A DNA stretch of 64,000 nt from an uncultured Alphaproteobacteria bacterium (GCA_944392145.1 CALXVS010000004.1:5833-69832), one strand, 5' to 3'; positions 5,507 through 9,001 are shown, counted from the first letter of the stretch. The notes: a model not told the origin generated them from the letters alone. Numbers and translations: made by a program.

Positions 5507-7252
5507 TTACTGAACGCGAACGACCGAGCACGAAAACCCACGACGCCCCAGTTTATGACACAGATTGTCGGCAGATTTAACGTTTTTCATTGGTCCGATT
5601 CTTAACCGGAACAACTCACGCACGTCCCCGTCTGCCGTCATATCAACAGAATAATACGGTTCATACCCTTTCAACAGATCTTCATTCTTGGTATAAATGG
5701 ATTCCCACACAGTTTCTAATTCGGCAATATTCGGGTGTGTTCCCAATTCAACTGAAATCGTTTCACCACCACCAATTACTGTTTTTAATTCTGTCGCAGA
5801 GGCACCTTTTTTCACCGTTGACACCTGGTTGATAACACCAACAATGCCCGATGAGGCCGACGGTGAATACTTCACCGCATTTGGAATTGCCGGCAAAGGA
5901 GCCATTGTCTCTGTTTCAATGGCACGAACCGCTGAAGCCACATCAACATTAGCCCGCCCTTCTTCATCGGCAATGGTTGACGAAACCGACACCTGACTTG
6001 GCGCCGGAGCAGCTATCCCCTCTTCCGTCGTTGCCACAACAATCGGCTTCCCGTCCATGGTCAACGGAATCTGCTTTTGTAATGTGCCATCTTTGTTCAT
6101 ACCACCTGTTGATGACGGTGCATTACCACTTGGTGTATTGGTTGTTGTTGCATACCAATTTGATTGAGATTTTTGAGAACCGCTGTAATCCACATACTCT
6201 AATCCCGATGTCGGATCGCGACGCAATTTCAAGCAAATTAACTTTTTACCGTTACGCAACACCATATCACCAACGCCTTCAACCACAATCAGGCGGGAAT
6301 TCGGCCCACGGGTCCGAAACCCAACGGGAACTTCCGAATCCTGAACAATTAAACTAACCACCGGCCGTTGCGTCATTGTCAATGCTTTGGGGCCTAAATC
6401 AATATAAGTAAAGATGTCATCCCGCCACACATTATCCGGTGCGATATCAACCGCTGCCGGATCCGGCAGATACATTTCAATATCAAAGCGGAATTTTTCC
6501 GGATCCACCGGAATGGTGTTCAACCAGTTTTGCGGCCCCGTTGAGGCTGTGTTCAACCCAATTTGCGGATTTTGGCCACGACCGGCCCACATCGGGGCAC
6601 CGGCACCACTGGCAGAACCGCCCGCTGATGCCGTGGCCGTGGCTCCATTAAAATTTCCCAGCCGCCCTCCGTCAGCGACGGGCGTGTATTTAGGTCCGAC
6701 AATAATATCCACAACAGACTGCGTGATCTTGTCGGTATTATAAGTTTCCGAACGCAAGTAAAATACATAGCGATTGCCCGAGCGACCGAAAATAATCATG
6801 TTACTGTCCACCCCGATGTAAGACGGATCGGCATATACCAACAATGAATTCGGAGCGGCAATTTCACCACCAAACGATTCGGGTGAACCGATATGCACCT
6901 TTTCAATCAATTCCCAAGTCGGCAGATTGATCAACGTCATCATCCCTTCACGCAACCGAACCGGCAACACAACATCCGGCGTCCAGGTGTATTTTGAGTA
7001 ACCGGGTTTCGTTTGCCCTTCACCCAAATGTGCCATCGGGTCATTCCATGCTTTTTGCTGCATGCCCAAAGAATGGATGTATCCCAAGTTGACCGCATCA
7101 AATTCACCGGTCGTTTGGGCAATGGCGTCACTCAGCTGCGCCGCCTCTACATCTGTAGGCAACACTTGTTGCGCACGCGCGCCAACCGTCGCCAGAACCA
7201 TTAAACTGACGGCGCCAAGCCAACACATCTTTTGAGCATTTTGTTTTAACAT
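5507..7252 (-). CDS. VirB9/CagX/DotH-like T4SS outer-membrane core protein (581 aa, with a Gly/Ser/Ala low-complexity insert)
   Basis: Signal peptide (…SLMVLATVGARAQQ). N-terminal domain has the VirB9/TrbG beta-sandwich signature ('…SNMIIFGRSGNRYVFYLRSE', 'LVYADPSYIGVDS'). It precedes the giant repeat gene. Confidence 0.5.
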   Translation of the reverse strand: MLKQNAQKMCWLGAVSLMVLATVGARAQQVLPTDVEAAQLSDAIAQTTGEFDAVNLGYIHSLGMQQKAWNDPMAHLGEGQTKPGYSKYTWTPDVVLPVRLREGMMTLINLPTWELIEKVHIGSPESFGGEIAAPNSLLVYADPSYIGVDSNMIIFGRSGNRYVFYLRSETYNTDKITQSVVDIIVGPKYTPVADGGRLGNFNGATATASAGGSASGAGAPMWAGRGQNPQIGLNTASTGPQNWLNTIPVDPEKFRFDIEMYLPDPAAVDIAPDNVWRDDIFTYIDLGPKALTMTQRPVVSLIVQDSEVPVGFRTRGPNSRLIVVEGVGDMVLRNGKKLICLKLRRDPTSGLEYVDYSGSQKSQSNWYATTTNTPSGNAPSSTGGMNKDGTLQKQIPLTMDGKPIVVATTEEGIAAPAPSQVSVSSTIADEEGRANVDVASAVRAIETETMAPLPAIPNAVKYSPSASSGIVGVINQVSTVKKGASATELKTVIGGGETISVELGTHPNIAELETVWESIYTKNEDLLKGYEPYYSVDMTADGDVRELFRLRIGPMKNVKSADNLCHKLGRRGFSCSVVRVQ

Positions 7253-7364
7253 CCGTATTTCTCCTTTTTAAAAACGCCTTATTTGTATACCATATCCAAA
7301 AACAGTCGCAAAGTCTAGAAAAAAATAACAATAAGCTGATTTTTTTAATTTTCCCATCCGTTTT

Positions 7365-8084
7365 TTAAGAATCTGCTTGCTGAATACCGAAACGTGTCAC
7401 CGTAAAGCCCAATGGATTTTTCAAACGATCTTTCCATAAAAGCCCCGGCCGCGACGGACGGAAATCCACCTGCATGACGATCAACCACTTTGTTTTGACG
7501 GGTTCGGCGGCACCGGCCTTCATGTCTGTCAACTCCACCTCGGCTCGCCAAATATCTCCTTCTTGTTGGTTAGAACGATATTTTGACACCACCAAAATGC
7601 GGACATTTCGGGTAAATCCCTCTTTTTTCGCCTGATCAATCAACAATCCGGCTGATGCGGCGAATTCCGAAAAGACCGACGTTTCACTCATCCAATTGAC
7701 TGTGCCGTCCAACCCCCAACGCCGCTCCAACTCTCGAATATCACTGCCAATGGTCAACCGTGCCAACAAGTATTGCCGAATAAACGATTCCTGCAGCACT
7801 TCAGAGTTTAACTCATTCCACGGCGGGCGCGTCACGGTGATAATTTGCTCATCCTTGTCCTGTGTATGCAAATAAAACGGTTGAACCCGCACGATTGGTA
7901 ACAAAGAAAATAACGCCATAATTAACATAATATTCGCCAAAAACGACACCACGGCAACGGTTGCAAAAACACGCGTCATCCACAAATAACGCTGTTCCGT
8001 TGTCACTTCAGGTTCCGGCCGGGTAACAGCCGGACGAACAGTGGGGTTTTGAGCGGGTTGTTTAAAGCGACGGACCGGCATCAA
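7365..8084 (-). CDS. VirB8/TraE/DotI-like bitopic inner-membrane T4SS protein (239 aa)
   Basis: ~40-aa cytoplasmic N-terminus, one TM (FATVAVVSFLANIMLIMALFSLL), then 'PIVRVQPFYL…' periplasmic domain typical of VirB8-family NTF2-like proteins. Paralog of 8363-9001. Confidence 0.5.
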   Translation of the reverse strand: MMPVRRFKQPAQNPTVRPAVTRPEPEVTTEQRYLWMTRVFATVAVVSFLANIMLIMALFSLLPIVRVQPFYLHTQDKDEQIITVTRPPWNELNSEVLQESFIRQYLLARLTIGSDIRELERRWGLDGTVNWMSETSVFSEFAASAGLLIDQAKKEGFTRNVRILVVSKYRSNQQEGDIWRAEVELTDMKAGAAEPVKTKWLIVMQVDFRPSRPGLLWKDRLKNPLGFTVTRFGIQQADS

Positions 8085-8102
8085 CTGCCTCCGGTGTTTT
8101 AC

Positions 8103-8294
8103 TTATGAAAACCATACAGGTAAAGCCGGCGCTTTTTTAAGCTCCAAGCAAGCACAGGGAGATTTTTTCAACTGGGAGTAATCTGGACCAATACCGACTG
8201 TTTCCTTTTCATAAACGGAACCGCAAGCCACCAAAGCCAACATCCCCAACAAACCCAATAATATAATATGCTTTTTCATGTTTTTTCCTTTCAA
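8103..8294 (-). CDS. Small lipoprotein (63 aa), VirB7-like by position
   Basis: MKKHIILLGLLGMLALVAC… signal peptide with lipobox LVAC. Located between two VirB8-like paralogs, as RvhB7 is in Rickettsiales rvh loci. Confidence 0.4.
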   Translation of the reverse strand: MKGKNMKKHIILLGLLGMLALVACGSVYEKETVGIGPDYSQLKKSPCACLELKKAPALPVWFS

Positions 8295-8362
8295 AAAATC
8301 AAGAAGCCGTTTTTACATTATCACATAAAATAGAAATATCCAATCAAAAAATGAAGTCATCC

Positions 8363-9001
8363 TTATTTTTTTTCACTTTCCTTGTATCCTTTAACGGTCA
8401 ATCCATACGGATTAGCATACTCGGACATATAAAAAACATTCCCCGGATCATATTCTATTTCTACAATAGAAACACGGCTTTGCTTTGATATCGTTCCTCC
8501 CACCATCGTATATAAATCAAAATCAACCGTAAAAATATTGCCGTTGCGTGACACCGATCGGATATCAATATTTTGGGTATAACCCGCCTTACGAATATTT
8601 TCGGTCATGGGGGCAACAGCATCCCGAAATTGACGAAAAACGGTCGGTGTAGAAAGCACAAAAATCGGGCCATATGTTGACCAACGCCGTAAAATTTCCA
8701 CATCATCGGGAAAAAATGTATGCCGCATCGTCAGATAATAACGAATCAACATCTCATCAATCAATGCCTTATCCCCTACATCTGTGGAAAACGGTTCCGT
8801 TTCAATTAAGGCTCCTGACGTCATAGGCGTGGTCAAAATTTGAGCCGTCACCTGCAGCTTTGGTGCCATTTGAAGTAATGTCAAGGCAAAAAACGTATTC
8901 ACAGCAACCAAGACTCCCGTCACAAAAATCCAAAAATTGACGGATCGTTTCGTGCCATCCATTTGCGCTACTGTTTTTATCAACTCCATTATTGACATCA
9001 A
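8363..9001 (-). CDS. VirB8/TraE/DotI-like paralog (212 aa)
   Basis: Same architecture as 7365-8084 (TM 'FWIFVTGVLVAVNTFFALTLL', conserved 'IR.YL…' periplasmic segment). Confidence 0.5.
   Translation of the reverse strand: MMSIMELIKTVAQMDGTKRSVNFWIFVTGVLVAVNTFFALTLLQMAPKLQVTAQILTTPMTSGALIETEPFSTDVGDKALIDEMLIRYYLTMRHTFFPDDVEILRRWSTYGPIFVLSTPTVFRQFRDAVAPMTENIRKAGYTQNIDIRSVSRNGNIFTVDFDLYTMVGGTISKQSRVSIVEIEYDPGNVFYMSEYANPYGLTVKGYKESEKK

Follow-up and report, generated by a model that had tools for sequence, protein, structure and literature searches.

A stretch of 64,000 nucleotides from an uncultured alphaproteobacterium (GCA_944392145.1, CALXVS010000004.1:5833-69832), called the window in the following, carries in its left part the genes of a type IV secretion system (T4SS), all of them on the minus strand, and its left end cuts through the last of these, a giant virB10. 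Metagenome contigs encoding an identical VirB9 (L001-L006) were used to extend the window leftwards. In the direction of transcription, seven open reading frames (ORFs) with signal peptides (105, 125, ~220, 399, 250/256, 256 and 554 amino acids (aa), from 14945 down to 8998) are followed by virB8a, a gene for a VirB7-type lipoprotein, virB8b, virB9 and the giant virB10, and then, beyond the left end, by virB11 (Table 1). The stop codon of the 554-aa ORF, u554, overlaps the start of virB8a, the intergenic gaps along the whole set measure 0-112 bp, and scans for terminators and promoters gave no signal above chance; because of the short gaps and the lack of a terminator signal exceeding chance, the genes have the appearance of one operon. 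Upstream of it lie folD, surA, an lptF/G-lptD fusion and xerD, housekeeping genes come after virB11 on the identical contigs, and none of the ten largest ORFs found elsewhere in the window (34-64 kb) has a T4SS domain.

A first-pass annotation made from the nucleotide sequence had described this region as a T4SS core block in which two VirB8-like genes flank a tiny lipoprotein gene and precede an expanded VirB9-like gene and a giant VirB10 candidate, and it had placed the whole in a low-GC alphaproteobacterium. Its ORFs and their coordinates on the minus strand held, and matches to the VirB8, VirB9, VirB10 and VirB11 families bear out the core block. Both genes beside the lipoprotein gene match the VirB8 family of Pfam. 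Chance does not account for the arrangement, since of 81 related loci 75 have exactly two VirB8 genes that flank a lipoprotein gene. The assignment of the host likewise stands, its G + C content being moderate to low. The operon is the core of a domesticated P-type T4SS, and the region as a whole is probably the main operon of a chromosomally fixed and vertically inherited system of this type (VirB/IVA, mating-pair formation type T, MPF-T) in an uncultured gut alphaproteobacterium.

Table 1. T4SS genes and features at the left end of the window, in the order of transcription reversed, with the range of amino acid identity between the window protein and its counterparts in related loci.
Feature	Position	Strand	Description	Evidence	Identity across relatives
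virB11		-	T2SSE gene, VirB11-type ATPase, 332 aa, directly after virB10	gene on identical contigs	54-77%
giant virB10, 5' part	1..5485	-	1828 of 2294 codons in window	Pfam repeats; rest on identical contigs	
SPOR domain of VirB9	5510..5764	-	residues ~497-581	AF2 model, Foldseek, Pfam	
virB9	5507..7252	-	581 aa	Pfam CagX/VirB9 PF03524, E 1.7e-12, residues 86-341; SPOR 529-579	40-79%
virB8b	7365..8081 (or 7365-8084)	-	238 aa	Pfam VirB8 PF04335, E 1.5e-12	32-68%
virB7-type lipoprotein	8103..8279 (ATG); 8103-8294 from TTG	-	58 aa precursor, 40 aa mature (63 aa from TTG)	lipobox LVAC	45-83%
virB8a	8363..8998 (ATG, likelier); 8363-9001 from TTG	-	211 aa from ATG	Pfam VirB8 PF04335, E 1.9e-10	24-48%
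u554	8998..10662	-	554 aa, secreted	signal peptide; family in 73 related loci	
u256	10678..11448	-	256 aa, secreted, helical	family in 60 loci	
u250/256	11622..12392	-	secreted, VirB5-like	profile-profile comparison (hhalign)	
u399	12402..13601	-	secreted, u250 paralog (VirB5-like, weaker evidence)	hhalign	
three small secreted ORFs, operon head	13598..14945	-	~220, 125 and 105 aa	signal peptides; called as genes on identical metagenome contigs	

With respect to the two largest components, the VirB10 candidate of the first-pass annotation proved to be genuine on the identical contigs, where its full length of 2294 aa ends in a TrbI/VirB10 domain (PF03743), with a match to NF038091 as well. It consists of a transmembrane helix (residues 16-43), about 1,900 residues of beta-hairpin repeats of the beta-flower/RHS-like kind (Pfam finds Bflower_2 18 times, Bflower, DUF3659 and RHS in the part within the window) and, last, the barrel domain. 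At the DNA level there is a single tandem repeat, of 51 bp x 2.4, and the idea of a recombination-prone virB10 in the manner of cagY found no support. In a deep subclade of the related loci (L077, L081, L084 and L086, including Candidatus Scatocola), virB10 is split in two giant genes of ~1150-1450 aa each, and the u554 homolog of the same subclade measures 1400-1855 aa, so that the accessory parts of the system are highly plastic in size. The gene for a T4SS ATPase, virB11, lies immediately beyond the window, and no virD4 follows it. The VirB11-type ATPase matches TIGR02788 (2.9e-42) with 144.8 bits, which is below the equivalog cut-off of 249.95.

VirB9 begins with a signal peptide. Its N- and C-terminal VirB9 domains are connected through a Gly/Ser-rich linker, and after a long disordered spacer the protein ends in a SPOR domain. 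The Gly/Ser-rich insert, to which the enlargement of this protein had been ascribed, is a poorly conserved inter-domain linker (residues ~190-245), and the true expansion is a C-terminal extension of ~240 residues with the SPOR domain at its end. This domain passes the Pfam cut-off for PF05036 (22.3 bits versus 21), and precomputed PF05036 matches are found in many homologs, too. In an AlphaFold2 (AF2) model of the whole protein the mean pLDDT confidence score is 46 and the model is poor outside the SPOR segment, where alone values of 75-96 are reached and a beta-alpha-beta-beta-alpha-beta fold is predicted whose top Foldseek matches are the peptidoglycan-binding domain of CwlC (1x60), the SPOR domain of RlpA, and DedD. 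Two cysteines within the SPOR domain, Cys565 and Cys575, are invariant. A third, Cys340 (RNGKKLIC340LKL), is invariant in 79 of 79 relatives and in every comparator, including RvhB9-I of Rickettsia and an Agrobacterium VirB9, and it aligns with the very RvhB9-I cysteine that was marked as the predicted partner in a disulfide bond with VirB7 (PMC2653234, supplement). The VirB9 profile had no match among PDB sequences, and a literature search gave no paper in which SPOR and VirB9 occur together and nothing relevant for beta-flower and VirB10.

The lipoprotein gene probably starts at an ATG at 8279, which is preceded by a GGAAA ribosome-binding site, and the gene callers on the identical metagenome contigs likewise give 58 aa; of the earlier description the LVAC lipobox stands, and the length of 63 aa corresponds to a start at an upstream TTG. 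The precursor reads MKKHIILLGLLGMLALVA up to the processing site and CGS... thereafter. The gene is found in 79 related loci, where the consensus of the mature peptide is C-G-S-[VI]-Y-E-x-E-P-V-G-I-G-x-D-Y-S-E-L-K-K-S-P-C-A-C. The core, K-K-S-P-Cys, coincides exactly with the [KI]KSP motif beside the second cysteine that is common to Rickettsia RvhB7 and the ComB7 proteins of Helicobacter and Campylobacter (Gillespie et al. 2009, PMC2653234), and in the supplement to the same paper RvhB7 of R. typhi reads ...CTPSAPYEIKSPCVS... at this point. Judged by these features the small lipoprotein is a VirB7. Since (K/R)x(S/T)PCAC also occurs in the VirB7 proteins of plasmid-borne T4SSs from Microvirga, Erythrobacter, Azospirillum, Roseibium and Thalassospira, the KSPCAC motif is not specific to the Rickettsiales vir homolog (rvh) system.

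The two VirB8 proteins of the window share 27% identity and are related with a profile-profile probability of 100%. VirB8a has an N-terminal transmembrane helix (residues 19-45) and a periplasmic VirB8 domain with NPYG, whose N196-P197-x-G199 is invariant across the family in the alignment of relatives. In VirB8b the cytoplasmic motif RYLW..R.F is conserved and is followed by the transmembrane helix and NPLG. As VirB8a is without the RYLW..R.F motif and evolves faster than VirB8b (Table 1), it is the derived copy. The family profiles of VirB8a and VirB8b match the Bartonella VirB8 structure 4mei at 3.5e-10 and 1.6e-11, respectively, and both match solved VirB8 proteins of Bartonella, Brucella, pKM101 and R388 (including TrwG and TraE) with E-values of 1e-10 to 1e-6. 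Neither profile found a DotI structure even at E<=10, and the structure of RvhB8-II (PDB 4O3V) was likewise missed by the profiles at this threshold and by single sequences. Both genes thus code for canonical type IVA VirB8 proteins. The first-pass annotation had also considered a DotI/DotJ-like pair of a type IVB system, which has no more in its favour than a superficial pattern, two adjacent genes of VirB8 fold; with the profiles hitting VirB8, TrwG and TraE and not DotI, with VirB9, VirB10 and VirB11 all of IVA families, with the ATPase being VirB11 and not DotB, and with DotG at ~17 bits versus 99 for VirB10 and DotB at ~23 versus 145 for VirB11, this reading is rejected.

A scan of one genome per GTDB species gave at least 92 genomes with VirB9, of which 80 were fetched. 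The VirB9 homologs form 1159 protein clusters; among the best 120 of these identity is nowhere below 57%, and all belong to metagenome-assembled genomes (MAGs) labelled "Alphaproteobacteria bacterium". All the genomes derive from the rumen, caecum, rectum or faeces of sheep, deer, yak, goat, rabbit, chicken and humans. There is one named carrier, Candidatus Scatocola faecigallinarum, placed by NCBI in Rhodospirillales incertae sedis, a lineage that probably corresponds to the GTDB order RF32; a literature search on RF32 and type IV secretion found nothing relevant. The order u554-B8a-B7-B8b-B9-B10-B11 is almost universal in the related loci, often with surA-folD upstream, and the divergence of the core genes tracks that of housekeeping genes. 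The conserved order and the surA-folD context indicate vertical inheritance and not residence on a mobile element, and the pattern of conservation is that of a selected machine. Deviations from this order occur as well. In L076 the upstream VirB8 copy is interrupted by a masked run of N, in L050, L053 and L058 only VirB8b is found beside VirB7 and virB8a is missing there, and in L021 and L025 the block B9-B10-B11 is detached from the VirB8 genes; the last five loci show further lineage-specific scattering or loss.

No relaxase, VirD4, VirB6, integrase or replication gene was found within 10 kb in about 80 loci or in the 64-kb window. These negatives bear on the possibility that the region, as the remnant of a plasmid or as an integrated conjugative element, still mediates DNA conjugation. 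Such an origin would fit the finding, detailed below, that the closest kin are the T4SSs of conjugative or mobilisable MOBQ plasmids with relaxase and VirD4. However, a relaxase, VirD4, integrase or replication gene is absent from the loci and the window as just stated, the surA-folD flank recurs across many species in step with housekeeping divergence, and virB3-virB4 can be embedded between gatCAB and ppa (see below), so that ongoing conjugation is quite improbable.

The window also lacks a virB4. In L076, which belongs to the deepest subclade, virB4 lies in the same cluster, with genes for four secreted proteins between it and the block B8-B7-B8-B9-B10, and in other genomes it resides elsewhere. 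On contig CALXXX010000040 (islet L096, from the same assembly as the core locus L048) genes for a virB2-like and a virB3-like protein and virB4 are found among housekeeping genes, and on contig CASECF010000006 (islet L103) a virB3-like gene and virB4 lie between gatCAB and ppa; the CASECF01 assembly also holds the core locus L007, which of all species representatives is closest to the window. The islet VirB4 shares 59.7% identity with the VirB4 encoded in cis in L076 and 37% with that of Microvirga, which matches the divergence of the core genes, and only one type of VirB4 was seen. The T4SS genes of this clade are thus distributed over several islets, and in this respect, too, they resemble rvh. 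Of note, the virB2-virB3-virB4 islet in MAG E27__bin304 (L095/L096, 1-8976) adjoins a divergent cluster of TcpQ, secretin, PilO, T2SSE and T2SSF genes that looks like a type IVb pilus system. A query with the VirD4 of Microvirga gave 625 matches, and the two contexts inspected were both ordinary conjugative elements. Many VirD4 proteins of related conjugative elements (e.g., L097, ERZ1669375 NODE_121) carry an intein (Hom_end_hint, LAGLIDADG) inside a VirD4 of ~1050-1130 aa.

As to its origin, the sequence comparisons lead to three alphaproteobacterial megaplasmids, pMVF16-3 of Microvirga sp. VF16, p1 of Sphingosinicella sp. BN140058 and a plasmid of Erythrobacter aureus. VirB11 is 38-41% identical to their VirB11 proteins and ~30% identical to classical VirB, VirB9 is 35-39% identical to theirs, with no Agrobacterium-type plasmid VirB9 among its 16 matches at E<=1e-5, and the C-terminal domain of VirB10 is 31-37% identical to theirs. 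As in the window, these plasmids encode a KKSPCAC VirB7, a long VirB9 that has the three cysteines as well and is SPOR-like at its C-terminus, and VirB5-like proteins that precede VirB7. They differ in having one VirB8, a VirB10 of 530-590 aa, a contiguous B2-B3-B4-B5...B11-D4 cluster, a MobA/MobL relaxase and replication genes, while the system of the window is chromosomal and split into islets, with two VirB8 proteins and a VirB10 of 2294 aa, and neither VirD4 nor a relaxase is encoded next to it. For every part that can be recognised, the closest relatives are hence found in conjugative plasmid systems of the MOBQ type, which have one VirB8 and the canonical order B2-B11/D4.

The first-pass annotation had called the organisation rvh-like. 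The Rickettsia gene order on which it drew is correct, for in R. typhi it is rvhB9-I, rvhB8-II, then rvhB7, rvhB8-I, rvhB9-II, rvhB10, rvhB11, then rvhD4 (Gillespie 2015, PMC4676284, Fig. 5D), and as far as gene order is concerned the likeness stands. A survey from 2024 lists as hallmarks of rvh the duplication of RvhB8, RvhB9 and RvhB4, a multicopy RvhB6 and the absence of VirB5, and treats this layout as a bona fide signature of the Rickettsiales (PMC11077975). Of these and related traits the gut system has the duplicated VirB8 with VirB7 between the copies. It has one VirB9 per locus in 80 loci, u554 occupying the position of RvhB9-I; its u250 and u399 proteins align with plasmid proteins of the VirB5 family, albeit with moderate support; no VirD4 follows VirB11 at the locus; and VirB8a retains the NPxG dimer motif that RvhB8-II has lost (PMC4676284).

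Phylogenetic reconstruction by neighbour-joining, for which the Rickettsia sequences were taken from the supplementary alignment of the 2009 paper, places the gut system away from rvh. In the VirB11 tree the gut clade is monophyletic (88% bootstrap) and sister to Microvirga (100%), followed by Erythrobacter and Sphingosinicella (90%) and then by other plasmids, with Rickettsia outside; the pairwise values agree, VirB11 being 41% identical to that of Microvirga versus 26% (113 bits) to that of R. typhi. In the VirB8 tree VirB8b is monophyletic (99%), and VirB8a, VirB8b and the single-copy plasmid VirB8 proteins form a clade with 100% support from which both RvhB8-I and RvhB8-II are excluded. 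A HMMER search with VirB8a over 1.84 billion representative proteins returned 171 relatives, all of them of the B8a, the B8b or the Microvirga type. With the two paralog profiles the plasmid VirB8 proteins reach similar scores, and RvhB8-II has a score of zero with either of them, so that neither the pairwise and profile scores nor the trees make the two paralogs orthologs of RvhB8-I and RvhB8-II. Trees and profile scores together imply that the extra VirB8 arose within this lineage of plasmid descent, no later than at the base of the gut clade. Whether by local duplication or by capture of a closely related copy, the second VirB8 came independently of the duplication in rvh, and the resemblance to rvh, including the divergent copy upstream of virB7 and the canonical one downstream, is convergent.

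By the opposite hypothesis the system is a true member or sister of rvh and shares the VirB8 duplication around VirB7 with the Rickettsiales by descent. The order B8-B7-B8-B9-B10-B11 is indeed identical to that of the R. typhi islet, with the divergent VirB8 upstream of B7 and the canonical one downstream in both; the [KI]KSP-Cys motif of VirB7 and the VirB9 cysteine are common to both; both have their genes dispersed as islets between housekeeping genes; and vertical inheritance as the signature of a clade is a further likeness. However, the KSPCAC motif is shared with many plasmid VirB7 proteins, the VirB11 identities favour Microvirga, Rickettsia falls outside the clade that joins the gut system to plasmids with a single VirB8, neither paralog profile detects any similarity to RvhB8-II, NPxG is present in both paralogs, unlike in RvhB8-II, and a single VirB9, VirB5-like genes and the lack of VirD4 after VirB11 set the system further apart. 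Likewise, a giant VirB10 and a VirB9 with SPOR domain are not seen in the Rickettsia sequences of the 2009 supplement, where RvhB10 is below 490 aa and RvhB9-I measures ~250 aa. Common descent with rvh is therefore very improbable.

The secreted proteins encoded upstream of virB8a are the least conserved part of the operon, with 22-38% identity across relatives and down to undetectable similarity, and none of the seven has a direct match in Pfam, NCBIfam or PDB. The u554 family has 26 invariant residues, shows no similarity to VirB9, and is homologous to the C-terminal two thirds of a 922-aa protein which precedes VirB8 in L076 (hhalign 100%); its single-sequence AF2 model is unusable (pLDDT 39). 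The N-terminal part of the same 922-aa protein is weakly related to u256 (hhalign 79%, residues 88-180). An alignment of the u250 family to the proteins that the related plasmids encode at the VirB5 position has an hhalign probability of 96% (P 5e-9), and two members of this reference set pass the Pfam threshold for PF07996. As u399 aligns with u250 (91%) and with this plasmid set (64%), there is moderate evidence that some of these proteins are VirB5-like. For the three small ORFs at the head of the operon no homologs were detected in the other 80 loci, and they are specific to the species group of the window.

Combining these observations, VirB7, the C-terminal domain of VirB9 and the barrel of VirB10 would form the outer-membrane core complex, in which the VirB7 cysteine of KKSPCAC is probably linked by a disulfide bond to Cys340 of VirB9, as in VirB7-VirB9 of Agrobacterium. 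The SPOR domain suggests that this complex may be tethered to peptidoglycan, with the glycan strands of the cell wall as the predicted anchor. The bitopic VirB8a and VirB8b, both with NPxG retained, could build the periplasmic arches or the inner-membrane platform, possibly as a mixed assembly, and energy would be supplied by VirB4, encoded elsewhere, and by VirB11. The beta-repeats of VirB10 and the fast-evolving VirB5-like paralogs might provide an enlarged and variable distal part that faces the periplasm or the surface.

Comparable elaborations are known from other T4SSs. In the Cag system of Helicobacter pylori (CagX/CagY) the VirB9 homolog is enlarged (the Pfam family matched by VirB9 of the window bears the name CagX), a VirB10 of ~2000 residues contains internal repeats and extra system-specific secreted components occur upstream, as here. 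However, the repeats in the window are beta-flower/RHS-like with almost no tandem repetition at the DNA level, unlike those of cagY, no Cag-specific families were detected, and the sequence affinity is to alphaproteobacterial plasmids. The Trw system of Bartonella is, like the one described here, a chromosomal, non-conjugative derivative of a plasmid system with multiple paralogs of VirB5-type surface or pilus-tip proteins (cf. PMC4676284); it differs by amplifying trwL and trwJ-I-H, by its one VirB8 (TrwG), and by the lack of a close sequence relation.

The ComB systems of Helicobacter and Campylobacter share with the window the KKSPC of VirB7 and the match of the VirB10 C-terminal domain to ComB10, and no VirD4 was detected here. 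This invites the hypothesis that the system serves DNA uptake (competence) or DNA release instead of effector delivery or adhesion. Among solved structures the VirB10 C-terminal domain fits ComB10 best, but this likeness may merely mirror which structures have been solved. In addition, VirB11 is strongly conserved in the gut clade (Table 1), whereas the ComB systems of Helicobacter are not known to have a VirB11, several VirB5-like paralogs and a giant repeat VirB10 are not features of ComB, the VirB9 carries a SPOR domain, and the host is an alphaproteobacterium. A role in DNA uptake or release is, on balance, unlikely.

The lack of a relaxase, coupling protein and integrase at the locus in ~80 species, together with the conserved flanks, instead argues for a contact-dependent role over conjugation. 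Our best guess, and the least certain step of the argument, is that the machine most likely serves contact with host or neighbour cells, i.e. the delivery of effectors or adhesion. The following scenario is put forward tentatively, as one that may well not hold in full. A whole order-level clade of uncultured Alphaproteobacteria from gut and rumen would carry, inherited vertically as its signature, a domesticated T4SS of conjugative origin that converged on the design of rvh, with a divergent extra VirB8 upstream of VirB7 and its genes spread over islets, and that gained a repeat VirB10 of CagY size, a VirB9 anchored in the wall and a set of fast-evolving VirB5-like tips. These supposedly commensal bacteria might use it to attach to epithelial cells of the host, to protists or to neighbouring bacteria, or to inject effectors into them.

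Several points weigh against this interpretation. The disulfide bond between VirB7 and VirB9, the function of the SPOR domain and mixed VirB8 assemblies are what we infer from the components. The trees are neighbour-joining trees of small samples with one Rickettsia representative, and the placement of VirB8a inside the plasmid-type clade has a bootstrap value below 50. The VirB5-like assignment comes from profile-profile scores, with no direct match in Pfam or PDB. The best PDB match of the VirB10 C-terminal domain is ComB10 (2bhv) with 6e-18, against 5e-6 for VirB10 of Xanthomonas (67.8 bits versus 28 for any other solved VirB10), and in NCBIfam the ComB10 score of this part equals the VirB10 score. 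The link between the core locus and the VirB4 islet rests in two cases on the binning of MAGs, and neither VirB6 nor VirD4 was found for the clade in searches of which the one for VirD4 was swamped by conjugative elements.

If the arrangement VirB8-VirB7-VirB8 has arisen twice with the same polarity, this suggests that a second VirB8 next to VirB7 is a functional solution reached repeatedly in the domestication of conjugation machines and not just a historical accident, and the gut system offers a second natural setting in which the role of the extra VirB8 can be asked. In turn, a secretion machine that is conserved, and strongly elaborated in its envelope and surface parts, in uncultured Alphaproteobacteria that are widespread in the gut of ruminants, rabbits, chickens and humans is a lead to the interaction of these bacteria with their host or the microbiota. 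The system apparently has not been described before, and it comes from a widespread, uncultured gut lineage.

The remainder of the window has further features. The fusion gene upstream of the operon (17025-20261, minus strand) is a 1078-aa ORF which, according to the precomputed gene table of the identical contigs, combines an LptF/LptG permease domain (PF03739) with LptD (PF04453); such a fusion of an inner-membrane lipopolysaccharide permease to an outer-membrane lipopolysaccharide insertase is unusual. At 28193-29449 (plus strand) a 418-aa protein is encoded whose N-terminus is hydrophobic and resembles that of type IV pilins (GTLAIVGVLSIAGIAGY) and whose C-terminal half is rich in cysteine. 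A 420-aa ORF at 32527-33789 is a candidate for a protein with a T4SS C-terminal signal or eukaryote-like domains. A region of low G + C content (0.32-0.36, versus 0.42-0.48 in its flanks) extends from ~33800 to 44400, with a resolvase-like fragment (33798-34175, minus strand) at its start and a CysN-like GTPase, an arylsulfotransferase (ASST) and an AAA_14/DUF4143 ATPase as cargo, and was probably acquired horizontally. Finally, at 48611-53972 (plus strand), an RVT_1 reverse transcriptase of 359 aa is followed by a 649-aa ORF without Pfam match, an ORF of 156 aa and a protein of 612 aa whose N-terminus is DUF2201 metallopeptidase-like and whose C-terminus is VWA-like, a cluster that may be a defence-type or other retroelement module.

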